From positions 544,732,001 to 544,796,000 of the forward strand of contig JBNRSN020000001.1 in assembly GCA_051313645.2 (NCBI GenBank): a stretch of 64,000 bases of DNA. The letters run 5' to 3'. The notes beneath the pieces are model-generated. The model was not told the origin of the DNA and searched no databases. It saw nothing but the letters and a program-made list of their open reading frames with translations. How positions within the stretch are numbered: position 1 is the first letter of the stretch; every line of letters starts with the position of its first letter. Source of the DNA: Centroscyllium fabricii. Lineage: Eukaryota. This document shows, in pieces, positions 9 to 58,200 of the stretch. The translations under genes and the position numbers were made by a program.

Positions 9-3000
9 ATGCCGGCGCAACGACCGTCAGAAGAATTAATTGCAGCTGCCCACGCGAAGACGGCAGCCAAATGTTACTTTTGTGGGCAGTCTCAGCACCC
101 GAGACGTAACTGCCCTGCTAGAGAAGCGGCCTGTTCGAAATGTGGGAAGAAAGGACACTATGCAAAGGTCTGTAAAGCAACCACAAAATCGAAACCGGGC
201 AGCGCCGCGTGTGGAACATGGGAGCAGCCATATTGGGCTCACCCATCCCCCACTCAGCACCCCTCGTGGCAGCAGTCGCCATATTGGACTCAGCCTCCCC
301 CTCCACAATACACCGCATGGCGGCAGCCATCTTGGGGACCGGCCCCGGAGGACTACTCTTCGGATCAAGACGAATCGGCTGACCCAGTATTGGCATCGGT
401 GACCATCGACCAGGACAAGACTCAGTCACTGGAAAAATCTTCGGATCAAGACGAATCGGCTGATCCAGTATTGGCATCGGTGACCCTCGATCAAGACAAG
501 ACTCAGCCACTGGAAAAATCTATGATGCCGGTGGAAGTTAATGGTCAAGAGGTGGTGTGCCTGTTCGACAGTGGGAGCACAGTAAGTTTTATTAATCCTA
601 ATACTGTAAAGCATCTCTCCCTTAAAGTAATACCTGCGCGCCAGAGAATATCCATGGCTTCCAAGTCAGAATCTGCAGACGTCTCCGGGCGCTGCGCAGT
701 AGCACTCAATGTCCAGGGCGCGCTGTTTAATAATTTTAGCTTTTACGTGCTGCCACAGCTCTGCGCCCCCTTACTCCTGGGACTGGATTTCCAGTGCCAT
801 CTCCAGAGCGTTACTATGGTGTTCGGTGGGCCCCTTCCCTCGCTCACCGTTAGAAACTGCAGCCCAGCGCAGCACCCCCAACGCACTACCTGTGGCCTCT
901 CGACCCTTAAGGTCGCCCCTCCATCCCTCTTTGCCAACCTCACCCCAGACTGCAAGCCCGTCGCCACCAAGAGTAGGCGCTACAGTGCTGGGGACATGGA
1001 TTTTATAAAGTCCGAGGTGCAGCGCCTCCTAAAGGAAGGGGTCATCGAGGCCAGTAATAGCCCCTGGAGTGCGCAGGTAGTAGTAGTCAAAACCGGAGAG
1101 AAGAACCGGATGGTTGTGGACTACAGCCAGACTATAAACCGGTTCACCCAACTAGATGTCTACCCCCTCCCCCGGATAGCGGACATGGTGAACCAGATTG
1201 CGCAGTTTAAAGTGTTTTCCACCATAGACCTTAAATCTGCCTATCACCAGCTTCCCATCCGCTCAGAGGACCGTCTCTATACTGCCTTCGAGGCTGACGG
1301 TCGCCTCTACCAATTTCTTAGGGTCCCGTTTGGCGTCACGAATGGGGTCTCGGTCTTCCAAAGGGAGATGGACCGAATGGTCGATCGGCACGGGCTGCGA
1401 GCCACTTTCCCGTACCTCGATAATGTGACCATCTGCGGCCATGATCAGCAGGACCATGACGCCAACGTCCAGAAATTTCTCCACACCGCCAAAACGCTGA
1501 ACTTAACCTATAACACAGAAAAATGTGTGTTTAGCACCACCCGCCTGGCCATCCTTGGCAGCGTTGTGGAGAATGGGGTCATCGGTCCCGACCCGGACCG
1601 CATGCGCCCCCTCATGGAGCTCCCCCTCCCCCAATCCCACAAGGCCCTTAAACGGTGCTTGGGATTTTTTGCTTACTATGCCCAGTGGGTCCCCAACTAC
1701 GCGGACAAAGCTCGCCCACTACTCAAATCAACCTCTTTTCCCCTGTCTGCAGAAGCCAACTCGGCGTTCTGTGGAATTAAAAACGATATTGCTAAAGCCA
1801 CGATGCATGCTGTGGATGAGTCCGTCCCGTTCCAAGTGGAGAGCGATGCATCGGACTTTGCCCTGGCCGCCACCCTTAACCAGGCGGGCAGACCCGTGGC
1901 CGCCTTCTCGCGTACCCTCCAGGGCCCCGAGACCCGTCACTCCTCAGTCGAGAAGGAGACCCAGGCCATCGTTGAAGCAGTGCGGCACTGGAAGCACTAC
2001 CTGGCCGGCAAGCGTTTTACCCTGTTGACTGACCAACGATCAGTCGCGTTCATGTTCAACAACAAGGAACGGGGTAAAATCAAGAACGACAAGATATTAA
2101 GGTGGAGAATTGAACTCTCTGCGTTCAATTATGATATCTTGTACCGGCCCGGGAAATTTAACGAACCCCCAGACGCCCTATCCCGCGGTACCTGTGCCAG
2201 CGCACAGGCTGACCGTCTCCAAACCCTTCACAATGACCTCTGCCACCCGGGGGTCACCAGGTTGGTTCACTTCGTGAAGTCCCGCAACCTCCCCTACTCT
2301 ATCGAAGAGGTCAAGACCCTGACCAGCAATTGCCAGGTCTGCGCGGAGTGCAAGCCGCACTTCTACCGGCCAGACCGGGCGCACTTGATCAAGGCCACTC
2401 GCCCTTTGAACGACTCAGCGTCGATTTCAAAGGACCCCTTCCCTCCTCCAACAGGAATGTGTACTTCCTCAACATAATTGATGAGTACTCCCGCTTCCCC
2501 TTCGCCATTCCTTGCCCGGACATGACCTCCGCCACCGTTATCAAAGCCCCCAATAGTATCTTCTCCCTGTTCGGCTATCCCAACTATATCCATAGTGACC
2601 GGGGGGCCTCTTTTATGAGTGACGAGCTGCGTCAGTTTCTGCTAGCGAAAGGCATCGCGACTAGCAGGACTACCAGCTACAACCCCCGGGGGAACGGACA
2701 GGTCGAGAGGGAGAACGCCACTGTCTGGAAGGCCATCCAGTTAGCCCTACGGTCTAAAGGCCTCCCAGTCACCCGCTGACAGGACGTCCTCCCTGAAGCG
2801 CTCCACTCTATCCGGTCCCTCCTGTGTACTGCCAATAATGCCACCCCTCACGAACGACTTTTTGCCTTCCCCAGGAAATCAGCTTCCGGGACCTCGCTAC
2901 CATCGTGGCTACTATCCCCGAGACCGGTCCTGCTACGGAAGCACGTGAGGGGACACAAGGCAGATCCCCTGGTCGAACGGGTCCACCTCCTGCACGCCAA

Positions 3001-3385
3001 TCCCCAGTATGCCTACGTGGCGTACCCCGACGGGAGGGAGGACACTGTGTCCATAAAGGACCTGGCACCAGCGGGAGTCCCCAAACCCAGCCCCGCTCAG
3101 CAGCCCAAGCACCCAAGAAGCCCCGCTCAGCAGCCCAAGCACCCAAGAAGCCCCGCTCAGCAGCCCGCGCCCCCAAAACGTCCTGTTACGCTCCCCCAGC
3201 CACCGACGCCAAGGTACGCTCCCCGGCACGTGGACCCAGTACCCCAGTACGCCCGCACGGTACCTGCGAGCAGCACGGCGTGGCCTCCAGCTTGGATCCA
3301 CAGCGCGCGCCCCCTAGAGTCAGAGGACGAAGGAGAGAGCGCGCCCCCTGGGGACAGTCGACTAGCTGGTGCATGTTCCAGTTAG
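9..3385 (+). pseudogene. gag-pol of element A, disrupted
   Basis: ORF 9-2477 shifts frame near 2400 into integrase ORF 2330-2779. A TGA at 2777-2779 replaces a Trp that sister copies retain. Integrase C-terminus continues in 2945-3385. Confidence 0.88.
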
Positions 3386-3453
3386 TAGTCAATAAAAGCC
3401 TAATTGTTTCTTCATCTAACTACTCGCCTTCGAGGTCGTTATTTCAGGTCACA
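3346..3453 (+). repeat. Truncated 3' LTR (R/U5 portion) of element A
   Basis: Similar to the reverse complement of solo LTR 31519-31620 (gggacagtcg..ctggtgcatgttcca..aataaaagcct..gtcaca). No PPT or U3 in front of it. Confidence 0.75.
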
Positions 3454-3536
3454 GGTGCGGGCTCTTTCTTTTTATCCTGAAGAAAGAGTGTCCATTGACT
3501 CTGAAAGCTGTCGTACTTGCATCTATTGAAGTGATC

Positions 3537-7452: not shown

Positions 7453-9522
7453 TATCTAGATGGACTACTTCAACAAGACCTTGGCAACGCCTCGAAAGGC
7501 TGTGCCTCCCTCATGAAGCAATAGTTGAATTACAACAGCTCCAGGTACAGGTCATAAGGGCATCCTTCAGATGACTAAGATGCAAAGCCACTGCCAAATA
7601 AGCCCTGCCATCATGGTCTCTTTTTGGCAACATTGGCAACTCAGTCACTGGCTGACATACACCTCTCCTCTACAACCTCTTCCAAGGCTCTCATATTGAG
7701 ATCATTCTGCTGCTCCTTTGCAGAGGCCCACCTTCGCCTAAATCATTCTGCACATATCCCATCAGTGACAAAAAACATCTCGCTGACAAAAAATCTGAGA
7801 ACCTTCCTGCTTTTTAAGGCCTGCATGACTCCCCTTGGTGTGTCCTTCCAATTGTAGACTTATTTCTTTCAGTTCTGAAGCGGTTGGTAATTTGTAGCAG
7901 GAGACTTTGTGCTTGAGGTGGCACTTCCTTGTCTTTGGCTGCGGGATGGTTTGCTTCTAAGAAAAAAGTAGAATGTGAAGGCATTCTTCATGCCATCATA
8001 TGTATGGAATGCCATCCAATCTTCAGAGAGTAATCCTTAATGAGAGTGAGGTGGCACACACTGTCAAGGCCACCATCTCAACAGGCCTGGCTCATATACT
8101 TCACAGGCTCCTTCCCAAAGGACCTGCAAGCTAGATCTTCCTTAGCCGGACTTCACCTCAACTGAAGAGTCATAAAACTTGTGGGCTTGGTGCCCTGAAG
8201 AAGCACCTGCCCCAGACATTACATTGAGCTACATGATTACAGACACAAAATGGCTGCCTTGACTCTTTCAGCTTCTGCAACAGCCCTGGAATATCCTGCT
8301 TTCCACAGGCAAGATGTCAATAGAGGGTGTTAATAATGCCTGGAGCCCACCTTGAATATATGATGATGGTGCACTGAGGAAAGTTGGGTGGGTTCATCTC
8401 AATATTACACAGGTGATTCAAGAACAATTCTGGCAGACGTCTGATTGTAAATTCATTACTGAGAAAAAATATGGAGCTTGAACCTGTGATTGTAGATGAT
8501 GTAGATGTAAGCAGACTATTTGTCTTGGACGGTGAGCACAGAGTTAGAGGCCGTATGTCAAAATTACAAATCTCTATTCAGACCAAAATATATTTTTTTC
8601 ATCATGGCGGGTTATGTGTCCTAGCAAAAGACGTTGATGCTGTCTTGATTTCTTCTTTGAAAAGGAAGCGGGATGGTCTCTGGTTGAAGGTTACAGGGAT
8701 AATAATAGTCCAAGGTGATCAGACATTCAGCTGGACACGGTGGGCAGTGTATTGCTGGGCTATGAGCCGAATTTGTGGATGGTCACAGCTTTGTTCGAAC
8801 AGTGGGGATATGGGGATGAGTGGATGAATATTCTTGAGCTTTGCATGAGTACCTTTGGTGATCAGAGATTATTTTGCAGAACGTCTCCTTAGGAGATTAA
8901 ATAGTTTTGGTAGATTCCTTGATAGGACAGTGCATTGGAAGGAGCTGCTTTAATAGGCAGAATAGACTCTGATACCTTATCAATAACCTCGGAGACGAGA
9001 AGTTATGTGGTGAATAAAAGGCTTTTAATCGCTAAGACATGGGCATGCCCCAGCTAGTCGACTGCTCCCGGAATGATCGGGGGGAGGGAGACAGTCACCT
9101 TTATACCTGGTCCAGGGGGGGAGGAGCCACAGGCGGAGTCAGCACAGGCATGCCCAGATAAGCTATACAGGGAGAACTAAAAACATACAGAAAGGGTCAT
9201 AGAAGGTTATAGATATGGTACAGATATATAACACTGTAGCGCCAGCAAGGCCTAGGAACCACACGTGAGCCAGAGCTAGAGAAAACACAACTTTAATACA
9301 CTAGAGCTAAACAAGAAAGAGAGTGAACCACTCGCAACAAGCATATTTAAACAGTCCCGCGGTTGGTGACGTCATCGCGTCGGCAGACGTGGTGACGTCG
9401 TCGCGTCACCCGGATGAGCGGGGCTCTGCTCCGCGGAGTTCCCGTGGCGGATTCGGTGTCCCAGTGGGCGTGCCGCCACACAGCTCCCCCCAGAATCCGT
9501 CCGGGAGGAATAGTAAAAGAGT

Positions 9523-12500
9523 CTATGTGGGCCGTTGTGGTGGCCGGATAATGCGGCCGGACCGTGTTGCATGTTGCTTCTGGTTCTGCGGTGGAGTGTG
9601 GGCGGGTTTTGTTGTGGGAGGGCGACCGCGTTGTGGTGGTTGTGCGGGGACAGTCGTTTCGCCCGCTATAACGTGTGCCGGCTTGAGCCGGTCTATTGTC
9701 ACCGTTTCGGTCCTGTTGCCCATTTGCAGTTCGAAAGCTTTAGCTCCCGCCCGAAGCACTCTGTAGGGGCCATCGTATGGTGGCTGTAGTGGAGATCGGT
9801 GTCCGTCGCGCCGGACGAACATGAATTTTGCGTTTTTGATGCCGTCCGGCACCCGAGCTGCCGGCTCTCCGTGCCGGGCCACTGGTAGTGGCTGGAAAGC
9901 TCGTGCCGGGTTGGCGAAGTCTTTTAAATACTGGTCAGCTGACATGGGAGCGTTGGGCTCGGCTAGGAACTCGCCCGGCACTGTTAAGGCTTGGCCGTAG
10001 ACGAGTTCTGCTGCCGAGGCATTTAGGTCTTCCTTGACTGCCGAGCGCAGCCCGAGGAGAACCCATGGGAGGTGGTCGGTCCACGATGCGTCCTTGACGG
10101 TGGCTCGTAGTGATGCCTTCATTGAGCGGTGGAACCGTTCGCATAGCCCGTTCGCTTGTGGGTGGTATGCGGTGGTTCGATGTAGTGTTACCCCGAGGTC
10201 GCGGGCGATGGCCGCCCATAATGCCGACGTAAACTGGGGTCCTCCGTCGGAGGTGATGTCGGTGGGCACGCCGAAACGGACGACCCAGGTGGCGATGAAC
10301 GCCCTGGCCAAGTCCGTGGTGCCGGTGGCAGTGAGGGGGACTGCTTCTGGCCAGCGAGTGTTGCGGTTGACCATGGTCATAACGTGCGTGTGGCCCCGGG
10401 ATGGCGGTAGTGGCCCGACGAGATCAATGTGGACGTGGTCAAAGCGTCTGGCCGGTACTTTAAAGGTTTCCAGCGGTGCCGTGATGTGCTTGTGCTCTTT
10501 GGAGCGCTGGCAGGCAATGCAGGAGCTGGCCCAGGTGCGAACGTCCTTGCGCAGGCCGCGCCATACGAACCGGGCCGAGATTAATTTAATAGATGCGCGG
10601 GTGCCGGGGTGGGACAGGTCATGGAGGGTCCTGAATATGTGTCGCCTCCAAGCGTGGGGGACAACGGGCCTGGGCTGCGGCAGGGATACATCACAGCAGA
10701 TGACGGTGGCAGCGGGGCCGTGCACGATATTGGCCAAGTGGAGGCCCGGGAGATTTGCTGCTGCGTTGAGCAGGTCTGGGTCGGCCAGCTGGTCTGCGGC
10801 CAGCTGGGTGTAATCGACCGCCATTTGGGCAGCGTTAATGGTGGGGCGTGAGAGGCAGTCAGCAACCACGTTGTCGCGGCCGGAGATATGTTGGATGTCA
10901 GTCGTAAATTCCGACACGGCCGCGAGTTGGCGCTGCTGCCTGGCCGACCAGGGTTCGGCGACCTTAGCCATCGCAAACGTGAGTGGCTTATGGTCGACGA
11001 AGGCTGTGAAGTGGCGGCCCTCCAGGAGGAAACGAAAATGTCGCACTGCCAGATGGAGAGCGAGGAGCTCCCTATCGAAGGCGCTGTACTTAACCTCTGG
11101 GGGCCGGAGTTGCCGGCTGAAAAAGGCCAGGGGCTGCCACGAGTTGCCGGTCCACTGCTCAAATACGGCCCCGACCGCGTGGTCGGAGGCGTCGGTGGTG
11201 AGGGCTACTCTGGCGTTGGGCCTAGGGTGGGCTAGGAGGGTGGCGTTTGCCAGGGCTGTTTTAGTTGCGGTGAAGGCGGTGGCGGCGTCGGCCGTCCACT
11301 CGACCGCAGCCTTGTTAGACTGCCCACGGGTGGCCTGGTATAAGGGGGCCATGAGAGCGGCTGCTCCCGGGATGAAGCGGTTATAAAAATTGACCATCCC
11401 CAGAAATTCCTGCAGCCCTTTAAAGGAGGGCGGGCGGGGGAATTCCTGTACCGCCTGCACCTTTGAGGGCAGGGGTATGGCCCCTGTTTGGGAGATACGG
11501 TGGCCGAGGAAGTCAATGGTATCGAGGCCGAATTTGCACTTGGTAGGGCTTAATATGAGGCCGTGTTCGGCCAGGCGCTGGAACAGGGTCCTGAGGTGCA
11601 GGAGGTGTTCCTGGGGGGAGGTGCTGGCCACGAGGATGTCGTCTAAATAGACGAAAATGAACTTCAAGTCCCGCAGGACCGAGTCCATGAGGCGCTGGAA
11701 GGCCTGGGTCGCGTTTTTAAGGCCGAAGGGCATCCTGAGGAACTCGAAGAGCCCGAAGGGGGTGATGACGGCCGTTTTAGGAATGTCCGCCGGGTGCACC
11801 GGAACCTGGTGGTAGCCACGCACCAGGTCGATCTTAGAGAAGATCGTGCAGCCCGCTAATCTGGTGGAAAAATCTTGGATGTGGGGTACGGGGTACCTAT
11901 CCGGGGTAGTGGCGTTGTTTAGGCGGCGGTAGTCACCGCAGGTGCGCCAACCCCCGTCTGGCTTGGGGGCTATGTGGAGAGGAGAGGCCCAGGGGCTGTT
12001 GGAGCGGCGGATAATGCCGAGTTGCTCCATGGTGCGGAACTCGGTGCGCGCGATCTCCTGTTTGGCCGGGTCGAGCCTACGGGCGTGGGCATGGACGGGC
12101 GGGCCTGTGGTCGTAATAAAGTGTTCCACCCCGTGTTTGGCCTGGCGGGCGGTGAACGTGGGGTTGGTTAGGGCGGGGAACTCTGCAAGGAGTGCGCCGT
12201 AGGCGTCCGAGTTCCGAGAGCGGCATTGGGCTGCCGCGTGGGCCAGGAGTGCGGGCCCTGTGGAGCATGGGATGGTCGTCATGTTATTCATGTTGACCAA
12301 GCGGCGCCGGGTCACCTCGACCAGTAGGCCGTAGGCGCAGTGGAAATCTGCCCCGAGGAGGGGTGAAGTGACCTGGGCTGTGACGAAATCCCAGGTGTAC
12401 GTGTGGCTTGCAAGTGTAATAGTGAGCTTGCGGGTGCCGTACGTTTTAATACTGGAGCCGTTGGCCGCTGCGAGTGGCGAGCCCCGGGTGCCTTGTTCGG

Positions 12501-13350
12501 TTTCTGCAGGGGAGGCTGGCACGATGCTTTGCTGCGCGCCTGTGTCGCAGAGGAACCTAAGGCCTGTGCCTCTGTCTGTAACAAAGAGCAGTGCTCCTGT
12601 GTGGCCTACAGACATAGTGGGGGCTGAGTTGGGCCGTGGCTTGAATGCGCATGGCTGGACGCAGCGGTGCGCTTTGTTATCGAACCGCGTGTGGTAGTAG
12701 CACCAGCCGGTGCTAGAGGGACGCGGTTGCCTAGGTGGGCGCGGGGCCCTAGGTTCAGGCGTAAAGTTGGGCCTGGGAGGTGATTGGTTGCGCTCTACCG
12801 ATGCGGAGTTAGGGTCGCACGTGGTTGAGCGGGTGCGCTGCGCCTCCATGAGCCTGTCGGCTTCCTCAGCGAGCTCGTCGTCGCTCCGTTGGCCAAGGGC
12901 CGCCAAGGCCGGTCTGATGGAGCGGGGCAGTTTAAGGAGGAAGACGGTGCGGAACAGGGAGGCCAGATTGGGTGTAAGCGCTTGCATCTGACCTAAGAGG
13001 TCCGATGGGTCTGCGTCCCCGAGTTCGGGGAGGTCAAGGAGCTGGCAGTCGCGCTCAAATTGAGAGGGGGTAAAAAAAATTATAAGCGCGGCCTTAAGGG
13101 ATTCGTACCTGCCTGTAGTGGGCACACGCTGTATTTTTGACCACATCCGATCGATCGTCGATTGCGGTAGGGCTGAGAACACCAGGTCGTAGCGGTCGTC
13201 CCCCTGGATGCCATGTGTGCGGCAGCTGGTCTCGATGCACATAAACCAGGCCGCTGGCCGTTGCTCCCAGAACTCCGGTAGAGTTAGTCCGCGTCCGAAG
13301 TTCTGGCCAAGTCCCTGTGTTCGTGGGGCTTGGTTCCTTGCTCTTGCCAT
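9523..13350 (-). CDS. Intact 1275-aa Gag-Pol polyprotein
   Basis: Gag LPEFW..PAAWF and CHCC motif [18 protein letters not shown] (CsRn1 signature); protease LCDTGA; RT YLDD; RNase H TTDASD; integrase HHCC, HIDLV/TSDGG/CERFH, GPY. Confidence 0.95.
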
Positions 13351-13428
13351 GTTTTCCGTTTTAAAATGTTCTTTGGCTGGTGGTCCCTGATCCTGCGGCA
13401 GCTTTTCTTCTTTGGATGTCGTTCCAAA

Positions 13429-13440
13429 TCGGGGTCACCA
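13429..13440 (-). promoter_or_regulatory. tRNA-Trp primer-binding site
   Basis: TGGTGACCCCGA 1 nt after the 5' LTR. Confidence 0.85.
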
Positions 13441-13864
13441 CTGTAGCGCCAGCAAGGCCTAGGAACCACACGTGAGCCAGAGCTAGAGAAATCACAACTT
13501 TAATACACTAGAGCTAAACAAGAAAGAGAGTGAACCACTCGCAACAAGCATATTTAAACAGTCCCGCGGTTGGTGACGTCATCGCGTCGGCAGACGTGGT
13601 GACGTCGTCGCATCACCCGGATGAGCGGGGCTCTGCTCCGCGGAGTTCCCGTGGCGGATTCGGTGTCCCAGTGGGCGTGCCGCCACAACACAGTGGTTTA
13701 CCACAGACTCTTTCTTCTTTTTGTATATATTTACCCCAATGTACATTTGAAAAGCCAGTGTTCTTTGACCACCAGCAAGTTCCTCATCTGCACCTTACTT
13801 TTCACACTGCGTATAATGTATTATTGTGTTGCCATAACGAAACCATGTGCAACTTAGTCTGTCC

Positions 13865-15881: not shown

Positions 15882-15885
15882 GTCC

Positions 15886-21059: not shown

Positions 21060-21089
21060 GTATGTCAATACATTTTATTATCATGATGT

Positions 21090-31326: not shown

Positions 31327-31518
31327 ATCGATGTGTTTCTTACTTATGCAATATCTTTTAACAGAGCTTTCAGCCGCCTCTGTACTTCCCTAATCCTCTC
31401 TGCTTTTCTATCTCCCTCTTCTCCTTTATGGCCCTCCTGAAAACCCATCTCTTTGACCAAGCTTTTGGTCATACCTCCCAATTTCTACCCTCCTGATTGT
31501 GGTAACCGTTATATGTCC

Positions 31519-31805
31519 TGTAACCTTCAATAACGTCCTCGGAGTCGAGTAGTAGGTTAGAACAATCAGGCTTTTATTCACTACATTTGGAACATGCACC
31601 AGCAAGCCGACTGTCCCCAGGAATGGCATGGGGGATGGGAGCAGTCACTTATATACCTCCTCCTGCGGGGGAGGAGTCGTGGGCGGAGCCAACCTGGGCA
31701 TGTCCCAGGTATCATCTCACAGTATAGTACAGTACAGGTATTTACAAGGTTACATCGTGATACATGGTAGTTAACTATATACAAGTGATATACACGTTTA
31801 TCACA
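31519..31805 (-). mobile_element. Solo LTR nested in the 5' LTR of element B
   Basis: TG...CA; TSD TGTCC/TGTAC; absent from the 3' LTR. Confidence 0.87.
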
Positions 31806-32115
31806 TGTACTCTTATTACCACCTTAATATTGTTACCAATATTACACTGCATGTATAGCGGCCGGGTGCATGATACAACTGTTCTGTATTGCGACACTGT
31901 CGCGGGGTCAGGTCAGCCACACCTCTAACTCCTCCCCTCAGGTGAGTGCCTTATAGGTGGGGTCTGATCTGCCCCCATTCATTCTGTACCTGATGTTCGA
32001 TCGGAGCATAGCTCCTTTGTAAGCTAATAAAAGCCTTTAGTTAAGGTAACTACGCGTCTTTAGTTTTATTAGACTATTGACGATACGTCAATCTTATTAG
32101 CTTAACATTTTTGAA

Positions 32116-35100
32116 ATGGAGAGCGGCGCTGTGAAACACGAAAAGCTGGACATTACTCCACAGGACCCAGCCGCCGCCAACACCTTCGAACACTGGTTCG
32201 GCCTCGTCGAGGCCTACATGGACGCCGCCAAGGCTACAACCGACGGGAACAAGCTACATGTTCTCAGATCCAGGATCTCCAGCCGGGTCTTCTCCTTCAT
32301 CCGTGACGCTAAGACGTACACTGAGGCCGTGGAGAAACTGAAGAAATGCTACGAGCGCCCGGTCCACTCTGTCTACGCCAGACATGTGCTCGCGACCAGA
32401 CCACAACTATCAAGTGAGTCTAATGAACAGTTCCTGTTGGCGCTCCAAGCCCTTGTCCGGGCCTGTGACTGCCAACCACGGACGGCACAAGAGGAGGCGA
32501 ACCTCCTCGTCCGGGACGCCTATGTAACAGGAATCAAGTCCGCAGAGGCCCGCCAGCGGCTGCTGGAAAAGGACACATTAACTCTAGACGAGGCGATCTC
32601 CGTCTCCAACGCCGTGGAGGGCGCACGCCGCAAGCTATAGGCGTACGGCGGCCCAAACCCACATGCTACCTTCGACTCCTGGGCAACTCCACAACGGGTC
32701 GAGACCCCCACAACGGCAGCGGCAGCTGCGAAGACGCCGGCGGGGAAGAGATGTTACTTCTGCGGCCAGGGACTACACCCACGGGCGAAATGCCCCGCGA
32801 GGACCGCGACCTGCGAGAGGTGCTTGAAAAAGGGACACTACGCCAAGGCCTGCAAATCGGCCCCGGCGTCCAGCTCCAGGTACAACAGCGCGGCCTGCGG
32901 AAGCTCGAACACCGGCCCTTGGCCTCAGGTAAGCTGCAGCTGCAGCGCGATACAGCAACGATCCAGGGGTAGAGTAAAAGCGCCCCCGTCCCCCACCCTG
33001 ATGCCCACGGCACGCCAAACTCAGCCACGACCGGCTATGTGCGACCCCCCAACGCCGGCATCCCGCCCAGCGCGGCCCGCTGCGTGCGAATCACGGGCAG
33101 TGCCAACCCAGCCACCACGGCTCGCTGCATGCGAACCACGGGCACTGCCACCGCGGCCACAGCGACCCGCCACGTGCGACCCCCCGGCACCGCCATCTTG
33201 TCTTCAGCGGCCAGCCATGTGCGACTCCCCGGCGCCGCCATCTTGTCTTCAGCGGCCAGCCATGTGCGACCCCCGGCGCCGCCATCTTGTCTCCAGTGGC
33301 CAGCCATGTGCGAACCATAGGCACCGCCATCTTGTGCACGGCCCCGGCCAATGGAGGGCTCCCACACAAACACACACACTTCGGCCTCAGCTACCCTGAA
33401 AGTCGACCAGGCTAGGCCGCACACACTATCAAATTCCATGATGGGGATTAAAGTCAACGGCCATGCCACTAACTGCCTGTTCGACACCGGAAGCACAGAG
33501 AGCTTCATCCACCCTGATACAGTGCAGCGCTACGGACTGCAGATCATGCCCACGCGCTACCAAGTCTCCCTTGCTTCACAGTCCCACACCGCGGACGTCA
33601 CCGGCTACTGCTCCGTCACGCTCACAAATAAGGGCTGCGTGTACCGTAATTTTAAATTGTACATACTGAAGCAGTTGTGCTGCCCAGTCTTACTGGGACT
33701 GGATTTCCAGTGCCACCTTAAGAGCGTGACAATGGAGTTCGGTGGGACCCTGCCCCACCTCACCGTCAGTAGCCGGGACAATCCCTTCCTAAAGCGGAGC
33801 CCGACTTGCGGCCTTTCCACCCTGAAAGTCGACGCCCCCTCACTGTTCGCCAACCTCAACCCCAACTGCAAGCCCATTGCTACCAAGAGTCGGCGTTACA
33901 GTGCAGGGGATCGGACATTTATCAGGTCGGAGGTCGGGCGTATGCTGATGGAGGGGATAATTGAAGCCAGCATCAGCCCCTGGCGGGCCCAGGTCGTAGT
34001 GGTTAAGACTGGCGAAAAACAGCGGATGGTGATCGACTACAGCCAGACCATTAACCGCTACACCGGGTTCGACGCCTACCCCCTCCCCCGCATCTCGGAA
34101 ATGGTTAACCAGATCGCCCAGTACAAGGTGTTCTCCACAATCGACCTTAAGTCGGCGTATCACCAACTCCCGATCCGGAAAGCCGACCGCCCGTACACCG
34201 CCTTCGAGGCGAACGGTCGGCTCTACCACTTCCTCCGGGTCCCCTTCGGCGTGACCAACGGAGTGTCGGTATTCCAGAGGGAGATGGACCGCATGGTTGA
34301 CCAGAACGGGTTGCAGGCCACCTTCCCCTACCTGGACAACTTGGCCATCTGCGGCCATGACCAGCAGGACCACGATGCCAACCTGGCCAAATTCCTCGAC
34401 ACGGCGAAACGGCTTGATCTCACATACAATAAAGATAAGTGCGTCTTTAGTACAGATCGGCTCGCCATCCTCGGATACGTGGTGGAAAAAGGGGTCCTCG
34501 GCCCCGACCCACAGCGTATGCGCCCCTTACAGAAACTGCCCCTTCCTCACAACCTCAAAGCCCTGAAGAGATGTCTGGGATTTTTCTCCTATTACGCGCA
34601 ATGGGTTCCCCAGTTCGCGGATAAGGCCAGACCGCTCCTTAAGGCTGCCGTCTTCCCCCTCTCAGTAGAACCCAAACGGCATTCGCCCGGATCAAGGAAG
34701 ATATCATCAAGGCGACCATGCATCCCGTTGATGAGTCCATCCCTTTCCAGGTGGAGAGTGACGCTTCGGACTTTGCCCTTGCCGCCACCCTGAATCAGGC
34801 AGGCAGGCCCGTAGTACATTTCTCGCGCACCCTACAGGGACCCGAACTTCGCCACTCCGCAGTGGAAAAGGAGGCCCAGGCCATCGTGGAGGCCGTGCGC
34901 TACTGGCGTCATTACCTGGCCGGTAAGCATTTTACCCTGCTCACCGACCAACGGTCGGTCGCGTTTATGTTTAACAATAAACAAAAGGGTAAAATCAAGA
35001 ATGCTAAGATCCTGCGGTGGCGGATCGAGCTCTCGACTTACGAGTACGACATTCTTTACCGACCAGGCAAACTCAATGAACCCCCGGACGCACTGCCCAG

Positions 35101-36202
35101 GGGAACGTGCGCCAGTGCCCAGCTAGACTGGCTGAAGGAACTCCACGATCGCCTCTGCCACCCGGGTGTCACCAGACTTGCCCACTTCGTTAAATCCCGT
35201 AGCCTCCCCTACTCCATCACAGAGATCAAGGCTATGACCCGAGAGTGCCCTGTTTGCGCCGAGTGCAAACCTCAATTTTTCAGGCCAGACACGGCGCGCC
35301 TCATTAAGGCCACCCGCCCCTTTGAACGTCTGAGCGTGGACTTCAAAGGCCCCCTCCCCTCCACCGACCGCAACTCGTACTTCCTCACGGTAGTAGACGA
35401 GTTCTCCCGCTTCCCCTTCGCCTTCCCCTGCCCAGATATGATGAGCGCAACGGTGATCAAACACTTCACCACGCTGTTCGCCATTTTCGGTCTCCCCAGC
35501 TACATTCATAGCGACCGGGGGTCGTCGTTCATGAGCGACGAACTGCGTCAGTTTCTGCTCCAGAAAAGGGTTGCCTCGAGCAGAACGACCAGTTACAACC
35601 CCCGGGGGAACGGCCAGGTAGAAAGGGAGAACGGGATTATCTGGAAGGCGGTCAGCCTGGCTCTGAAGTCCAGAGGCCTTCCAGTGTCCCGTTGGCAGGC
35701 AGTCCTCCCAGACGCGCTGCACTCGATCCGCTCTCTGTTGTGTACGGCCACTAACGCCACACCTCACGATTTACTCTCTTCCTTCCCCAGGAAGTCGACT
35801 TCGGGGACAGCCCTCCCACCATGGCTCATGATGCCGGGGCCGGTCTTGCTTAGGAAGCATGTCCGAGGCCATAAGACCGACCCCCTGTTGGACAAGGTGC
35901 AGCTGCTGCACGCCAACCCGCAGTACGCGTATGTGCAGTTCCCGGACGGGCGCGAGGACACCATCTCCATCAGGGACCTAGCGCCCGCCGGGAGCACCAC
36001 AGCAGAATCCTTGCTCGGGCCCCAGCACGTCCAGCCACTACATTTCGGCCACCTCCAGCCACTACATCTCGACCACTGGCCGGTACCTCGCCCTCAACCC
36101 ACTGGAGGCTGGCCGCTACTACCTTACGCACCACAGCCCTCGTCATTGACAGCTGAGGACCAGGAAGCAGACGACCAGCCGCAGGCACAGCAGCAACCGT
36201 AG
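32116..36202 (+). pseudogene. gag-pol of element B with a stop and frameshifts
   Basis: ORFs 32116-32640 (gag), 33351-34793 (PR LFDTGS, RT YLDN) and 34718-36202 (RNase H, integrase). Confidence 0.9.
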
Positions 36203-36859
36203 GGCTCGAACCCACCGCCACCACCAGCACCTACGGTACTGGCACCAGCGCCGCCGCCACCACCGACACCAGTGCCGAAACTGCAGGCACCAGAACCGCT
36301 GACAGAGACCCGGCGGTCCTCCAGACAGACGCGACCGGGATCCATTCACCCCGCCGGACTTAATTTTCAAAGAAGGGGTGAATGTGGTAACCGTTATATG
36401 TACTCTTATTACCACCTTACACTGCATGTATAGCGGCCGGGTGCATGATACAACTGTTCTGTATTGCGACACTGTCGCGGGGTCAGGTCAGCCACACCTC
36501 TAACTCCTCCCCTCAGGTGAGTGCCTTATAGGTGGGGTCTGACCTGCCCCCATTCATTCTGTACCTGATGTTCAATCGGAGCGTAGCTCCTTTGTAAGCT
36601 AATAAAAGCCTTTAGTTAAGGTAACTACGCGTCTTTAATTTTATTAGACTATTGACGATACGTCACTGATTCCGTGTCCATTTGCTATTTCCCTTATGCC
36701 TATTTGTGAAGTGCCATGGGCCATTTTTCATGTTCAATGTGGCCAGTAAATATAAGTTGTTGCCTTTGTATGTAATTCCTCTGTCATACTACTTAATAAA
36801 AGCAATGAACCACTTAAAATAGCAGGCAAAAGAATTTCACCCAGTCGGAAATCACACGG

Positions 36860-42831: not shown

Positions 42832-42953
42832 ATAGTTCTTAGAGTTGGGGGTGTTGGGCGATATGGGGAGAGGGTAGGAGGGGGGTGCTGGGTTTGGATG
42901 ATCAGCCATGATCTCATCGAATGGCGGAGCAGGCTTGAAGGGCCGAATGGCCT

Positions 42954-48421: not shown

Positions 48422-48651
48422 CTAATAATGGACCCGAATTTGCTGGGAAAATGTCACAGGCTAAAATCATACATACAGAAGATTGAGAATTCGGCAACAC
48501 TAAGCAAAAAGCAATATACAGCATAAAAAATTCACTTAACAAACTATTTGGTTCAGCTCCTATTAAAAGAAAAAAGAAAAGAATTGCCTTTCACGACCAC
48601 TGGACGTCCCAAAGCACTTTACAGCCAATTAAACAATTTTTGGAGTGTAGT

Positions 48652-48903
48652 TGACATATCGTCAATAATGCAAAAGACGAGTAGTTACCTTAACTACAGG
48701 CTTTTATTAACTTGAAGATGGAGCTAGTCTCCAGTTGAACACAAGGCAAAGAATGACTGGGGGCAGGGCAGACCTCACCTATAAGCTCCCACCTGAGGGG
48801 AGGAGTTAGAGGTGTGGCTGACCTAGCCTTGCATGCAGTATTCCATACACAATGCACTCGCAACTATACACAACTATATACAAGTGGTAATATGGTTCCC
48901 ACA
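48652..48903 (-). mobile_element. Solo LTR related to element B/C LTRs
   Basis: TG...CA; TSD GTAGT. Confidence 0.88.
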
Positions 48904-49242: not shown

Positions 49243-52200
49243 TGATGCGCGATCAATTATATTCGAGCCGAGGTTGAGAATACAACTGAGGCTTTTATTC
49301 ACTAAGAACCCTGGAGCATCCTTAGACTGACTGGCAACTCCTTGTAGTGAGCCAGGCTCCCAGAGCATGGGCCTATATCAGGTAGGCTAGGGGCGGAGTC
49401 AGCTTCAGGCATGCCTGGGCATGTATACATACAGGCCAGAGGCAACTATATACAAACAGTGGTTTACCACATTCACCCCTTCTTTAAAAATGAGTCCAGC
49501 AGGGTGAAGTGAGACAAGGTCAAGTGTACATGAGTCTTTCAGGAGGTCTGGTACACCACTGTGATCGTCGTGGCTCCAGCTGCGGTGCTGGTTCCACGTC
49601 TTCGTCCGTACGGGGGCAGTCGGCGGTCAGCAGCTGGGCCCTTGGATCCGGCGTGCAGTGTACAGGGGCTAGGGGAGAAAGATCGGACACAGGCGCCTCT
49701 CGGGGGGTGGTGGGTTGCAAAAGGAGGGGGTGGTGGGGCTCGGCAGCATCGGGGGCACCCGAGGGGGCGAGGTCCCGAATAGAGATGGTGTCCTCCCACC
49801 CATCCGGATATGCAATGTAGGTGTATTGGGGGTTTGACGTATCGTCAATAATACAATAATACTAAAGACGAGTAGTTACCTTAACTATAGGCTTTTATTA
49901 GCTTTACAAAGGAGCTACGCTCCAGTCGAACATCAGGTACAGAATGAATGGGGGCAGGTCAGACCCCACCTATAAGGCACTCACCTGAGGGGAGGAGTTA
50001 GAGGTGTGGCTGACCTGACCCTGCGACAGTGTCGTAATACCAAAAACTATGTACAGTGTTGTGCTTCACTATTACAGTGGTAATAACAGTAATCACGGTT
50101 ACCACATTCACCCCTTCTTTGAAAATTAAGTCCGGCGGGGTGAATGGACAGAGCAGTTCATAATAAGTCTCTCCAGCGGTCGCGTCTGCCTTGAGGACTG
50201 CCGGGTCTCTGTTAGCGGCGCCGGTGCCTGCAGTGTCGGCGGCGCTGGTGCCGGTAGTGTCGGCGGCACTGGTGCCGGTAGTGTCGATGCTGGTGCCGGT
50301 AGTGGCGGTGGGGCCACGCCCTCTGGCTGCTGCTGTGCCTGCGGTGCGGCGTCCGGTTCTTGGTCCTCGACTGGTAGTGGCGGGGGCTCCGGTGTGTGTA
50401 TGTGCATAGGCCAAAATCCGGTGGGTTGTGGATGGTGTATAGGCCAGTGGTCAGTAGGTAGTGGCTGGTCGGGCTGAGGCTCGACCAGGGGCTCTGCTGT
50501 GGTGCTCCCGGCGGGCGCTAGGTCCCTGATGGAAAATGTGTCCTCGCGCCCGTCCGGGAACTGCACGTATGCGTACTGTGGGTTGGCGTGCAGCAGCTGC
50601 ACCTTCTCCACCAGGCGGTCGGTCTTATGGCCGCGGACATGCTTTCTAAGCAAGACCGGCCCCGGCATCGTGAGCCATGGTGGGAGTGCTGTCCCCGAAG
50701 TCGACTTCCTGGGGAAGGAAAAGAGCAATTCGTGAGGTGTGGCGTTGGTGGCCGTACACAGCAGAGAGCGGATCGAGTGCAGCGCGTCTGGGAGGACTGC
50801 CTGCCAACGGGACACTGGAAGGCCTCTGGACTTCAGGGCCAGGCTGACCGCCTTCCAGATGATCCCGTTCTCCCTTTCTACCTGGCCGTTCCCCCGGGGG
50901 TTGTAACTGGTCGTTCTGCTTGAGGCAACCCCTTTCTGAAGCAGAAACTGACGCAGTTCGTCGCTCATGAACGACGACCCCCGGTCGCTATGGCTGTAGC
51001 TGGGGAGACCGAAAATGACGAACAGCGTGGTGAAGTGTTTGATCACCGTTGTGCTCGTCATATCTGGGCAGGGGAAGGCGAAGGGGAAGCGGGAGAACTC
51101 GTCTATGACCGTGAGGAAGTACGAGTTGCGGTCGATGGAGGGGAGGGGGCCTTTGAAGTCCACACTTAGACGTTCAAAGGGGCGGGTGGCCTTAATGAGG
51201 TGTGCCGTGTCTGGCCTGTAAAATTGGGGCTTGCACTCGGCGCAAACAGAGCACTCTCGGGTCATAGCCTTGATCTCCGTGATGGAGTAGGGGAGGCTAC
51301 GGGATTTAACGAAGTGGGCAAGTCTGGTGATACCCGCGTGGCAGAGACGATCGTGGAGTTCCTTCAGCCGGCCCAGCTGGGCACTGGCGCACGTTCCCCT
51401 GGACAGTGCGTCCGGGGGTTCATTGAGTTTGCCTGGTCGGTAAAGAATGTCGTACTCGTAAGTCGAGAGCTCGATCTGCCACCGCAGGATCTTATCATTC
51501 TTGATTTTACCCTTTTGTTTATTGTTAAACATAAACGCGACCGACTGTTGGTCGGTGAGCAGGGTAAAACGCTTACCGGCCAGGTAATGACGCCAGTAGC
51601 GCACAGCCTCCACGATGGCAGGGCCTGCTTTTCTACTGCAGAGTGGCGAATTTCGGGTCCCTGTAGGGTGCGGGAGAACAACGCTACGGGCCTGCCTGCC
51701 TGATTCAGGGTGGCGGCAAGGGCAAAGTCCGAAGCGTCACTCTCCACCTGGAAAGGGATGGACTCATCAACGGCGTGCATGGTCGCCTTGATAATATCTT
51801 CCTTGATCCAGGCGAACGCCGTGTGGGCTTCTACCGAGAGGGGGAAGACGGCAGCCTTGAGGAGCGGTCTGGCCTTATCCGCGAACTGGGGAACCCATTG
51901 CGCGTAATAAGAGAACAATCCCAGACATCTCTTCAGGGCTTTGGGGTTGTGAGGTAGGGGCAGTTCCTGTAAGGGATGCATACGCTGTGGGTCGGGGCCG
52001 AGGACCCCGTTTTCCACCACGTATCCGAGGATGGTGAGCCGATCTGTACTAAAGACGCACTTATCTTTATTATACGTGAGATCGAGCCGTTTCGCCGTGT
52101 GGAGAAATTTGGCCAGATTGGCATCGTGGTCCTGCTGGTCATGGCCGCAGATGGTCACGTTGTCCAGGTAGGGGAAAGTGGCCTGCAACCCGTTCTGGTC

Positions 52201-55200
52201 AACCATGCGGTCCATCTCCCTCTGGAATACCGACACCCCATTGGTCACGCCGAAGGGGACCCGGAGGAAGTGGTAGAGCCGACTGTTCGCCTCGAAGGCG
52301 GTGTATGGGCGGTCGGCTTTCCGGATCGGGAGTTGGTGATACGCCGATTTAAGGTCGATTGTGGAGAACACCTTGTACTGGGTGATCTGGTTAACCATTT
52401 CCGAGATGCGGGGAAGGGGGTAGGCGTCGAGCCCGGTGTAGCGGTTAATGGTCTGGCTGTAGTCGATCACCATCCGCAGTTTCTCGCCAGTCTTAACCAC
52501 TACGACCTGGGCCCGCCAGGCGCTGGTGCTGGCTTCAATTATCCCCTCCTGCAGCATACGCCCGACCTCCGACCTGATAAATGTCCAATCCCCTGCACTG
52601 TAACGCCGACTCTTAGTAGCAATGGGTTTGCAGTTTGGGTCGAGGTTGGCGAACAGCGAGGGGTGGTCGACTTTCAGGGTGGAAAGGCTGCAAGTCGGGC
52701 TCCGCTTTAGGAAGGGATTGTCCCGGCTACTGACTGTGAGTGGGGCCAGGGTCCCGCCGAACTCCATTGTCACGCTCTTCAGGTGGCACTGGAAATCCAG
52801 TCCCAGTAAGACTGGGGCGCACAACTGCTGGAGTATGTACAATTTAAAATTACGGTACACGCAGTCCCTGACTGTGAGCGTGACGGAGCAGTAGCCGGTG
52901 ACGTCCGCAGTGTGGGACTGTGAAGCAAGGGAGATTTGGTAGCGCGTGGGCAGGGTCTACAGTCCGTAGCGCCGCACTGTGTCAGGGTGGATGAAGCTCT
53001 CTGTGCTTCCGGTGTCGAACAGGCAGTTAGTGGCATGGCCGTTGACTTTAATCCCCATCATGGAATTTGATAGGGTGTGCGGCCTAGCCTGGTCGACCGT
53101 GGCTGAGGCCGAAGTGCGTGTGCTTGTGTGGGAGCCCTCCGCTAGCCGGGGCCGTGCACAAGATGGCGGCGCGCGTGATTCGCACATGGTCGGCCGCTCT
53201 GGACAAGATGGCAGCGCCGGGGAGTCGCACATGGCTGGCCGCTGAAGACAAGATGGCGGCGCCGGGGGGCGCACATGGCTGGCCGCTGTGGACGCGGTGG
53301 CGGTGCCCGTGGTTCGCACGCAGCGGGCCGCGGTGGCTGGGTTGGCGGCGCCCATGATTCGCATGCAGCGGGCCGCGCTGGGCGAGATGCCGGCGTTGGG
53401 TGTTCGCACATGGCCGGCCGTGGCCGAGTTTGGCGTGCCGTGTGCGCGGCCGGCCTCTGCCGTATCAGGGTGGGAGATGGGGGCGCTTGTACCCTACCCC
53501 CGGACCGTCGCTGGGTCGCGCTGCAACTGCAGCTTACCTGAGGCCAAGGGCCGGCGTTGGAGCTCTCGCAGGCCGCGCTGTTGTGTCTGGAGCTGGGCGC
53601 CAGGGCCGATTTGCAGGCCCTGGCGTAGTGTCCCTTTTACTTACACTTCTCGCAGGACGCGGTCCTCGCGGGGCATTTCGCTCGCGGGTGTAGTCCCTGG
53701 CCGCAGAAATAACATCTCTTCTCCTCCGACGTCTTCGCCACTGCCGCTGCCGTTGTGGGGGTCTCGACCCGTCGTGGGGCTGCCCAGGAGTCGAAGGTGG
53801 CTGGTGTGCTTTGGCCGCTGTACGCCTCTAGTCTGCGGCGTGCGCCATCCACCGCGTTGGAGAGGGAGATCGCCTTTTCCAGCGTTAGTGTCTCTTTCTC
53901 CAGCAGCCGCTGGCGGGCCTGGGCGGACCTGATCCCTGTTACATAGGCATCCCGGACGAGGAGATTCGCCTCCACTTGTGCCGTCCGTGCCTTGCAGTCA
54001 CAGGCCCGGACAAGGGCTTGGAGCGCCAACAGGTACTGTTCGTTGGACTCACCAACTAGTTGTGGTCTGGTCGCCAGCACATGTCTGGCGTAGACCGAGT
54101 GGACCGGGCGCACGTAGCATGCCTTCAGTTTTTCCACGGCTTCTGTGTACTTCTTAGCGTCGCGGATGAAGGAGTATACCCGGCTGGAGATCCTCGATGT
54201 GAGAACGTGAAGCTTGTTCCTGTCGGTTGTCGCCTTGGCGGCCTCCATGTAGGCCTCGACGAGACTGAACCAGTGTTCAAATGTATTGGCGGCGGCTGGG
54301 TCTTGTGGACTAACGTCCAGCTTTTCGGGTTTCACAGCGCTGCTCTCCATTTAAAATTTTAAAGCTAATAAAATTGACGTATCGTCAGTAATACAATAAT
54401 ACTAAAGACGAGTAGTTACCTTAACTATCGGCTTTTATTAGCTTTACAAAGGAGCTACGCTCCGGTCGAACATCAGGTACAGAATGAATGGGGGCAGGTC
54501 AGACCCCACCTATAAGGCACTCACCTGACGGGAGGAGTTAGAGGTGTGGCTGACCTGACCCTGCGACAGTGTCATAATACCAAAAACTATGTACAGTGTT
54601 GTGCTTCACTATCACAGTGGTAATAACAGTAATAACGGTTACCACAGGGTTCGCGTGGAGGAGTTGGACTCTTTCGACGAGGGGGTCCATCTTATGGCTC
54701 CTGACGTGTTTCCGGAGCAAGCCGACCCCTGGGGACGCCAGCCAAGATGGGAGCGATATCGCCGATGTGGACTTCCTGGGGAAGACAAACATTTTTTCAT
54801 GAGGGGTGGCGTTTATGGCAGTGCAGAGAAGGGACCGGATAGCATGGAGGGCATCCGGGAGAACGTCTTGCCAGCGCGAAACTGGAAGGCCCCTGGACTT
54901 TAGGGCTAGCAGGGTGGCCTTCCAGACTGTAGCATTCTCCCTCTCCACCTGTCTGTTTTCCCGGGGGTTGTAGCTGGTAGTCCTGCTCGTGGCGACTCCT
55001 CTAGCGAGCAGGTACTGTCGCAGCTCATCGCTCATGAATGAGGAACCCCGGTCACTATGGATGTAGCTGTGGAACCCGAAGAGGGCGAGGAGATTCTGCA
55101 GGGCCTTGATGACCGTGGCCGAGGTCATGTCAGGGCAGGGGATGGCGAAGGGGGAACGTGAGTACTCGTCAATAATAGTGAGAAAGTACACGTTGCGGTC

Positions 55201-58200
55201 GGGGGAGGGGAGGGGAGGGATCCCTTGAAATCGATGCTGAGGCGCTTGAAGGGACGGGTGGCCTTGATCAGTTGTGCCCTGTCTGACCTGTAAAAATGTG
55301 GGTTGATCTCGGCGCAGACCTGGCAGTCCCTGGTCATGGTTCTGACCTCCTCAATGGAGTAGGGCAGGTTGTGGGCCTTGACAAAATGGAAGAACCGGGT
55401 GACGCCCGGGTGGCAGAGGTCGTTGTGGAGGGACTGCAGTCGATCCACCTGCGGGCTGGTGCATGTTCCCCGGGAGGTGGCGTCTGGGGGCTCGTTGTGC
55501 TTCCCGGGCCGGTACAAGATGTCGTAGTTGTAGGTGGAGAGTTCAATTCTCCACCTCAATATCTTGTCGTTTTTGATTTTACCCCGCTGCTTGTTGCTGA
55601 ACATAAAAGCAACTGAGCGCTGGTCAGTGAGCAGGGTAAACCGTTGACCGGCCAGGTAATGCCTCCAGTGGCGCACAGCTTCCACTATGGCCTGGGCCTC
55701 CTTCTCGACAGAGGAGTGTCTAGTCTTGGGGCCTTGGAGGGTTCGTGAGAAGAAGGCCACGGGTCTGCCCGCCTGGTTAAGGGTGGCGGCCAGGGCAAAA
55801 TCGGACGCATCGCTCTCCACCTGAAATGGGGCGGTTTTGTCCACCGCGTGCATGGTGGCCGTAGCGATGTCCCGTTTGATGCGGTCGAAGGCCATACGGG
55901 CCTCCGTCATTAGGGGAAAGGAGGTGGACTTAAGGAGCGGACGGGCCTTGTCCGCAAAGTTGGGGACCCACTGGGCGTAGTAGGAGAAGAAGCCCAGGCA
56001 TCTTCGCAGGGCCTTTTGGCAGTGGGGGAGGGGGAGTTCCATGCGGGGGCGCATGCGGTCTGGGTCGGGACCGATGACCCCGTTTTCCATGACACAACCA
56101 AGAATAGCAAGGCGTGTTGTGCGGAACATGCATTTCTCCTTGTTATAGGTGAGGTTAAGGAGTTGGGCCATGCGAAGGAATTTTTCCAGGTTGGCGTCAT
56201 GGTCCTGCAGGTCATGGCCGCAGATGGTAACGTTGTCTAGGTATGGGAACGTGGCCAGCAGCCTATGCTGGTCAACCATATGGTCCATCTCCCGTTGGAA
56301 AACCGAGACGCCATTGGTAACCCTGAAGGGGACACTGAGGAAGTGGTAGAGGCGGCCGTTAGCCTCGAAGGCAGTATAGCGGCGGTTCGCGTGGTGGATG
56401 GGGAGTTGGTGATAAGCTGACTTCAGGTCAATGGTGGAGAACACCTTGTACTGCGCAATCTGATTGACCATGTCAAATATGCGGGGGAGGGGGTACGCGG
56501 CCAACTGCGTAAAGCGGTTGATGGTCTGGCAGTAGTCGATAACTAATCGGTTCTTTTCACCTGTCTTAACAATGACTACTTGGGCCCTCCAGGGGCTGGT
56601 GCTAGCCTCAATCACCCCCTCCTTCAGGAGCCGCAGTACCTCGGCCTTGATGAAAGCCCTGTCCCCAGCACTGTATCTCCTGCTCTTAGTGGCTATGGGT
56701 TTATAGTCTGGGGTGAGGTTAGCAAAAAGTGGTGGAGGGGCGACCTTGAGGGTCGGGAGGCTGCAGACGGCGCGCGATGGGTGGTTTGAAGGCTTCTGGC
56801 TGCGGACAGTGAGGGGTGGGAGGGGCCCCCCGTACGCCATCGTAATGCTATTAAGGTGAGTTTGGAAGTCTAACCCCAGGAGGACGGCTGCGCAGAGGTT
56901 GGGTAGGACCAGGAGTTTGAAATCCTTGTACACTGCGCCGCTCACCGACAGGGTTACCACGCAGTTATCGCCGACGTCCGCGGTCTGGGATTTGGAACCG
57001 AGGGAGATGCGCTGGTGCATGGGCCGAGTGGAGACGAGAAGCGGTGCACCGTATCGTGGTGGACAAAGCTTGCCGTGCTCCCCGAGTCAAACAGGCAGTT
57101 CGTGGCGCAGCCGTTTACCTTAATGTCCATCATCGACTTCGTGAGGTGGTGGGGCCTGGACTGGTCCAAGGTAATGGAAGCCAGTACCGGGGCTGGTGGC
57201 TCATCGCAGTCAGTCGGGGAGCCGGGTTGGTCTGTGGCTGCAGGCATCCAAGATGGCTGCTCCCATGAGTCACACATAGTGGGGGTTGTCCAAGATGGCC
57301 GTGAGGTCGGTTCGCACGCGGCGCTGCTGAGCCTGGGGGACGGCTTGCAGATGCTCACGTAGTATCCATTCTTCTGGCAACACGTGCACGTAGCGTCCTT
57401 CGCCGGACAGCGCCATCTGGAGTGCTTCACCTGGCCACAGAAATAGCACTTCTGGCTCTGGGGCACCGTCGCGGTGGTTGGGCCATTGACAGGGTGAGGC
57501 GAAGGTGGCGCGGCGTAAGGCGTCGGGCCTGGCGTGTTTCACGCTGGCAGCTCCCGCGAGGTCCATGGGGCGGTCATGTGTGCGTACGACTCCATACTCT
57601 GATCAGCCCCTTCGAGTGCGAGTCCGAACTTCTGTGACCTTCTTCAGGGACAGTTTCCCCAGTTCCAGCAGTCTCTTCCGGGTGTAGTCCGATTGTACGC
57701 CTGTGACGATGGCGTCCGGACTAGCAGCTCCCTGTGCTCATCTGCCGAGGCCGTTTCGCAGTTGCAGGTTCTGCTGAGCTCTGTCAGAGCCCGCACAAAG
57801 CCAGCAAAACTCTCCCCGGGCCGTTGTTTGCGAGTCAGCAGGAGGTGCCTGGCATAAACCGTGTTAGTCAACCGCTCGTACTGCTCCTTGAGGAGGGCCA
57901 TCATGGATGTGTAGGAGGTCGTTCCCTTGATGAGTTGAAACACCCGGTGATGGAGCCGTGACTGCAGAAGCAAGGGTTTCTGTGCGTCCGTCTGGACAGT
58001 GCTGGCGGAGGTCGCCAGGAATCCCTCGAAGCAGGTTAGCCAGTGGGAGAAGCTGCTCGGCGCCTCTGGTGCGCTCGGGTCGAGTTTCAGGGTGGATAGC
58101 TTCAGGAGAGCGTCCATCTCAAAACCTCTTAGTGAATAAAATTGATGCGCGATCAATTATACTCGAGACGAGGTTGAGAATACAACTGAGGCTTTTATTC

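Follow-up and report, generated by a model that had tools for sequence, protein, structure and literature searches.

Retrotransposons with a natural YLDN motif at the reverse transcriptase active site in Centroscyllium fabricii and in an animal-wide Ty3/Gypsy clade

Can a reverse transcriptase (RT) that carries asparagine in place of one of its catalytic aspartates sustain a retrotransposon? The YxDD motif is treated as invariant in RTs, and a change of its last aspartate (D) to asparagine (N) is read as inactivating; "All RTs contain three" aspartates (D...YxDD), in the words of one passage of PMC2148107 (articles are cited here by accession). The question is raised by a stretch of 64,000 nucleotides from Centroscyllium fabricii (GenBank assembly GCA_051313645.2, contig JBNRSN020000001.1, positions 544,732,001 to 544,796,000 of the forward strand), hereafter the window, in which four long terminal repeat (LTR) retrotransposons carry YLDN at this position. 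We have analyzed these four elements, their relatives throughout the assembly and homologous proteins from other animals. The clade to which they belong is a large-scale natural exception to the YxDD rule, and it bears on both the role of the third aspartate and what permits transposition without it.

The YLDN motif in the window and in the genome

An initial annotation of the window claimed YLDN in all four copies of a "Mag-like" element, in three LTR families and with different codons, which is borne out at all four positions. The motif occurs at 1413..1424 (+; element 1, family A; TAC CTC GAT AAT, aligned to the YLDD of Ty3), 34329..34340 (+; element 2, family B), 52159..52170 (-; element 3, family B) and 56232..56243 (-; element 4, family C), with AAC as the asparagine codon in the last three (TAC CTG GAC AAC in two copies, TAC CTA GAC AAC in one). 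The two family B elements, at 34.3 kb and 52.2 kb, share 88.6% identity across 4.8 kb, and the remaining pairs share 72-77%. All four motifs fall inside frames that match Pfam RVT_1, and alignment places the asparagine at Ty3 D214 and the other two aspartates at D151 and D213 (Ty3 numbering from PMC5371799). The enzymes depart from the canonical three-aspartate active site in that the third position is N. The neighboring CsRn1-like element has YLDD (11638-11649, -), as had also been noted.

Matching 5-bp target duplications, TG...CA LTRs and polypurine tracts are found at all four YLDN elements, in agreement with the clean duplications claimed for them. Element 1 has an open frame at 3..2477 (+) that runs through Gag zinc knuckles, protease, RT, RNase H and the start of integrase to a frameshift, followed by a 5'-truncated 3' LTR at 3347..3453 (+; duplication GGTGC); the 5' LTR and primer site of this element fall immediately outside the left edge of the window and were read from the adjoining DNA (L031). 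Element 2, which is broken, spans 31498..36665 (+; CTGAT), element 3 spans 49835..54646 (-; LTR identity 97.4%; AACCC) and element 4, within which element 3 is nested, spans 49243..58371 (-; LTR identity approximately 97%; CTTGC). All four window copies are interrupted by frameshifts or deletions and have open frames of 490-824 codons, or 1,017 codons for element 1 when the part left of the window is included.

That N is a lineage trait rather than a product of decay, as the initial annotation proposed, is supported by counts over the whole assembly. An exact 32-base pattern around the motif occurs 209,678 times with N, 283 times with D and 438 times with S, the last serving as a control (YLDS) in which the same A-to-G change falls one base further on within the same flanking pattern. 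Because D is rarer than the control S, YLDD in this sequence context amounts to mutation noise; the 30 D loci fetched out of the 283 are spread over several subfamilies. A second, wider pattern anchored on the upstream motif gave 211,330 N versus 396 D. At an assumed length of 4.5 kb each, these at least 211,330 copies would make up about 13% of the 7.2 Gb assembly. Annotation that scores YxDN copies as dead would miss a very abundant young LTR clade here.

Recent transposition of elements with N had also been proposed, and its extent proves to be massive. Open frames of 1,340-1,381 codons occur in 25 of the best 150 matches to the family A RT, a search that was seeded with an N sequence (the pattern counts are free of this bias). 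Nine of these 25 long-frame copies were fetched; all nine carry YLDN, with LTR identities of 97.9-99.6% and 5-bp duplications, one of which is mismatched, and none is an intact YLDD master copy, which would have spoken against this proposal. Between families the RT differs by 0.10-0.14 nonsynonymous changes per site (dN), with synonymous divergence (dS) ranging from 1.2 to saturated and dN/dS at or below 0.12, and within family B dN/dS is 0.31. The N-type RT is under purifying selection between families.

A genuine YLDD family of the same clade is also present in this genome. It surfaced through the wider pattern search, comprises approximately 162 copies as counted with one diagnostic 32-mer, and is more than 1,000-fold rarer than the N copies. 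The open frames around its RT range from 59 to 661 codons in all ten copies read, and a clear LTR pair was seen in three of the ten, with LTR identities of 89-98%. The clade provides matched natural D and N counterparts, some of them side by side in a single genome, for what studies of Ty1 and Ty3 have left unanswered.

An animal-wide clade with D or N at the third position

The named proteins closest to the window RTs are from a catshark (86% identity over the RT) and from rays, and relatives within the clade extend through sharks, rays, corals, an anemone, a ctenophore, an acoel, a damselfly, butterflies, moths, an aphid and a psyllid. Judged by sequence comparison, the YLDN lineage is far wider than this genome and is part of an old animal Ty3/Gypsy clade. 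Among 339 clade proteins of at least 40% identity, the site is N in 191, D in 145 and another residue in three. Eleven further catalytic or zinc-binding positions, consisting of the two remaining RT aspartates, four RNase H residues, two integrase histidines and the integrase DDE triad, are conserved in the D and N groups alike. In a representative search, all 45 matches below 42% identity have DD, so that N is seen only inside the clade. Searches elsewhere returned 19 pattern matches among viral contigs, none of them a relative, and only generic RT/RNase H clusters in the ESM Atlas with homologue P0108 as query.

The distribution of the two states was followed on a FastTree phylogeny of 235 RTs (347 before removal of near-duplicates) in which the D/N site was masked and from which rows shorter than 150 residues or lacking motif coverage were omitted. 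The clade has a support of 99 and sits on a long branch, and its earliest branches are almost all D. The D/N label changes 25 times on the best tree, with eight of these changes forced by strong branches; a quick IQ-TREE run on 125 rows gave eight changes, six of them forced. Six D clusters are nested among N, and D was found in 34 of 34 members covering the motif among those listed (up to 15 members per cluster), just as four N clusters have N in 32 of 32 such members. Since every listed member is D, the nested D lineages are real families and not stray copies. While the tree does not fix the direction of individual changes, N likely arose from D within the clade, and likely reverted to D more than once. 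N occupies 45 of 46 rows in the sub-branch to which the shark and ray copies belong.

Additional observations concern single groups within the clade. Among the named proteins, all nine from insects and the one from the acoel have D, and those from cnidarians, the ctenophore and cartilaginous fishes have N, a pattern that may be caused by shared ancestry. Three metagenome loci of one clade family (L132, L133 and L139) have HVGN at the motif, with both aspartates gone; this family is apparently multi-copy and possibly non-autonomous.

Priming and the function of the N-type enzyme

The initial annotation further suggested that the unusual enzyme might be co-adapted with unusual priming. In the YLDN elements, the 5' LTR and one spacer base are followed by no TGG; instead, the primer-binding position is complementary to a site 31-77 nt upstream within the LTR. 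For example, in element 2 the primer-binding position at 32092..32102 (+) lacks a tRNA-type TGG and pairs at 10 of 11 bases with a predicted self-primer site in the 5' LTR at 32022..32032 (+). The corresponding positions are 54363-54373 and 54433-54443 in element 3 (together 54363..54443, -) and 58131-58141 and 58193-58203 in element 4 (together 58131..58203, -). Three primer sites from this genome fold with z scores of -3.3 to -4.9 (-3.3 for element 3 and -4.9 for element 4). The comparison provided by the CsRn1-like element, which has a tRNA-type TGG primer site and a 4-bp duplication, showed no self-complementary fold (z +0.4).

The same arrangement was evaluated at 35 non-redundant sites, drawn from the four window elements and from those of 80 metagenome loci whose 5' end could be located. 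Pairing of 10 or more of the 11 bases is found in 26 of the 35, as compared to 2 of 1,060 internal positions searched in the same manner, and pairing is kept while the letters differ between families, which is covariation. Within the paired sites position -11 is A in 20 of 26 and position -10 is G in 25 of 26, preceded by a T-rich run; this AG after a T-rich run looks like an initiator and would yield an 11-nt primer. The Tf1 primer is also 11 nt in length. Self-priming in which 11 nt of an element's RNA serve as its primer, as in the Tf1-type mechanism (PMC4600332), is thus predicted for these elements. In the literature consulted on self-priming and related clades we found no description of this clade's primer. 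Masking of a poly(A) signal as the sole role of the duplex ranks lower. The paired site does overlap AATAAA in all three families of the window, but elsewhere in the clade ATTAAA, GTTAAA or GATAAA takes its place, and some of those members have an AATAAA that is not part of the duplex (L079, L142).

Of the N elements 20 of 25 carry the self-complementary site, and of the D elements 6 of 10 (Fisher p=0.39), the six paired D rows stemming from about four lineages and some of the misses lying on short contigs. The site also occurs in the YLDD family of this genome, in the three of ten copies that have a clear LTR pair. Because it is common to D and N members, the site is a trait of the clade and is not tied to N, and neither the proposed co-adaptation nor the idea that YLDN and the self-complementary site together mark one clade is supported. 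A weaker, permissive link between N and priming is possible, given that N is seen only inside this clade. One metagenome locus in an N-rich branch, L103, is a YLDD member in which CA-A-TTGG precedes gag and no self-complementary match is seen; a truncated contig or a different primer may account for this.

Taken together, the sequence data make it likely that YLDN elements copy themselves with an RT of two aspartates plus asparagine in a tolerant clade background. The two essential aspartates, equivalent to D151 and D213 of Ty3, would bind the metals, and the third position would need only an oxygen-bearing side chain of the shape of Asp or Asn. Enzyme features that are clade-wide, and hence common to D and N members, would offset the loss of speed and processivity that is lethal in Ty1 and Ty3 mutants, so that tolerance would reside in the shared background and not in one paired change. 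Priming would be Tf1-like in D and N members alike, the site after the 5' LTR being paired with 11 nt of RNA from the element itself. Work on yeast elements is informative here, in that Ty1 D211N and Ty3 D214N retain polymerase activity in vitro while the first two aspartates are essential in both enzymes (PMC2148107, PMC5371799), with Ty3 D151N and D213N both dead (PMC5371799); the third aspartate is thus the least essential, which makes a working N enzyme plausible. An AlphaFold model has a normal RT-RNase H fold (predicted local distance difference test score, pLDDT, 91.8) with cauliflower mosaic virus (CaMV) and Ty3 RT as the best matches, and some 30 positions that are conserved in the clade and different in the outgroup lie in the fingers, the template grip and RNase H.

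Several observations weigh against this explanation. As the initial annotation had stated, and as PMC2148107 confirms, the D-to-N change in Ty1 leaves polymerase activity but blocks transposition unless suppressed by RNase H changes: the D211N enzyme has a 223-fold lower kpol and prefers Mn, and suppressors restore transposition to 5-10%. Ty3 D214N is active but of low processivity and is lethal in vivo (PMC5371799). A compensating residue was sought with Fisher tests on RT-RNase H columns of 59 D and 112 N rows, and despite strong raw associations none of the top 25 states held in 7-8 independent pairs, a comparison of low power. The D:N proportions depend on the seed, as N occupies 106 of 125 rows in an N-seeded set versus 38 of 120 (with D in 82 of 120) in a D-seeded one. 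The trees come from fast methods (FastTree or a quick run), and in the larger one 94 of 232 forks are left open. Finally, a TATA-like box in family A, located about 70 nt upstream of the predicted primer, is at odds with a transcription start at the primer.

Other explanations place the cause elsewhere. If N had been selected as a fit to a tRNA-free primer, one would expect what is seen in its confinement to a clade with a strong self-priming signature, all distant RTs being DD; the signature is nevertheless found in D members, including the YLDD family here, and persists while D and N change at least eight times on the tree, making this account very unlikely. Still less probable is that the N-type RT is crippled and a YxDD enzyme from a different family does the copying in trans. 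Candidate helpers do exist in this genome, namely the YLDD family and the CsRn1-like element with its 1,303-codon frame, but purifying selection on the N-type RT and the intactness of all other catalytic residues speak against this, and the YLDD family is rare, with short frames and, in the three clear pairs, LTRs of 89-98% identity. There is an equally slight chance that the working enzyme has D, restored from N by A-to-I editing or by deamidation. An inosine in the first position of AAY gives IAY, which decodes as Asp, and the near-exclusive occurrence of D or N at the site would fit such a restoration. Edited genomic RNA would, however, leave G in new copies, whereas A-to-G here is rarer than the same change at the next base. 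The residue after the asparagine is V, I or L, which is a slow context for deamidation. Contigs from three of six sequencing runs, compared with window positions 33900-34700, yielded nothing on expression or editing.

A different possibility is that N is favored, and not just tolerated, in some lineages because it gives a slower or differently metal-tuned enzyme. The near-fixation of N in the shark and ray sub-branch, although one transition would restore D, speaks for this, as does the division of named proteins between insects with D and cnidarians, ctenophores and cartilaginous fishes with N. Both patterns are explicable by shared ancestry, the acoel protein is marine yet D, and the D families nested among N are multi-copy; we regard favored N as rather unlikely. 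Slightly less doubtful, though still improbable, is the broader proposal that N is adaptive, in which the animal-wide, self-primed clade would have made the third aspartate dispensable, the N form would have built roughly one-eighth of this genome, and D and N enzymes would differ in speed or metal use. The tolerant background described above is preferred over each of these.

Surrounding features and relation to known systems

Nesting is common in the window. Element 3 is inserted in the integrase region of element 4, and an inverted solo LTR (31519-31805, -) that is related to family A with 81% identity lies head-to-head within the 5' LTR of element 2. The comparison element, for which we retain the CsRn1-like label of the initial annotation, spans 9235..13687 (-) and is inserted in a solo LTR of the YLDN clade (about 8965-9234 plus 13688-13706, -). 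An additional family B-like LTR fragment of 84% identity occurs at 48651-48832, and tandem arrays occupy 28855-30100 and 39473-40207, with unit lengths of 20 bp and 49 bp. Decayed RT fragments with FADD motifs at 18061-18072, 37173-37184, 40887-40898, 45107-45118 and 62758-62769 are presumably of non-LTR, CR1/L2-like origin.

No description of retrotransposons with a natural YLDN turned up in the open literature; subscription journals and Repbase were outside this search, and prior notice is possible. The parts consulted of PMC3601003, PMC2774666, PMC12440569, PMC10415136 and PMC5210030 contain nothing on a natural YxDN, and YLDN is not mentioned in the supplements of PMC6238403 (four of five) and PMC8556966 (11 of 14).

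By every structural test run, the YLDN elements are Ty3/Gypsy (Metaviridae). Their domain order is Gag-protease-RT-RNase H-integrase, they have TG...CA LTRs, a polypurine tract and a target duplication within the 4-6 bp of this group, and the closest solved structure by sequence is Ty3 RT (PDB 4OL8, E 9e-49), in agreement with a fold search. The designation "Mag-like" stands only in part. Two CCHC zinc knuckles in Gag are a Mag feature, and two are read in the Gag of these elements, although the Pfam zf-CCHC match is weak (E 0.001). The Mag lineage (Mag, SURL) is also similar in its TG...CA LTR ends and 5-bp duplication. It differs in priming, as Mag-lineage primer sites match tRNA-Leu or tRNA-Ser (PMC3286476) while the YLDN elements are self-complementary and without a tRNA-type site. 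Compared by description only, Cigr-1 of Ciona intestinalis, which is filed under "Mag" in a supplement of the mollusc paper PMC6238403, offers a further point of reference. With a single open reading frame of approximately 1,200 amino acids and LTRs of approximately 250 bp, the present elements would fit Cigr-1.

The priming resembles that of Tf1, Tj1 and Tf1-sushi (PMC4600332), in that an 11-nt duplex joins the primer-binding position to a site within the 5' LTR of the same element. The YLDN clade differs from Tf1/sushi in having Gag zinc knuckles and a D/N-variable RT, and the chromodomain, which Tf1/sushi chromoviruses have at the integrase C-terminus, is not among the Pfam domains that 240 protein rows list. 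A natural asparagine at the second acidic position of motif C is found in the GDN motif of non-segmented negative-strand RNA virus polymerases; these are palm-domain RNA-dependent RNA polymerases in which N is fixed, whereas here the enzyme is an RT in which D and N alternate. The closest counterparts are the Ty1 D211N and Ty3 D214N mutants, which have the same substitution at the same position with the other two aspartates kept. Those mutants polymerize in vitro and, apart from the 5-10% rescue of Ty1 by RNase H suppressors, do not transpose, whereas in this genome N is natural in more than 200,000 copies.

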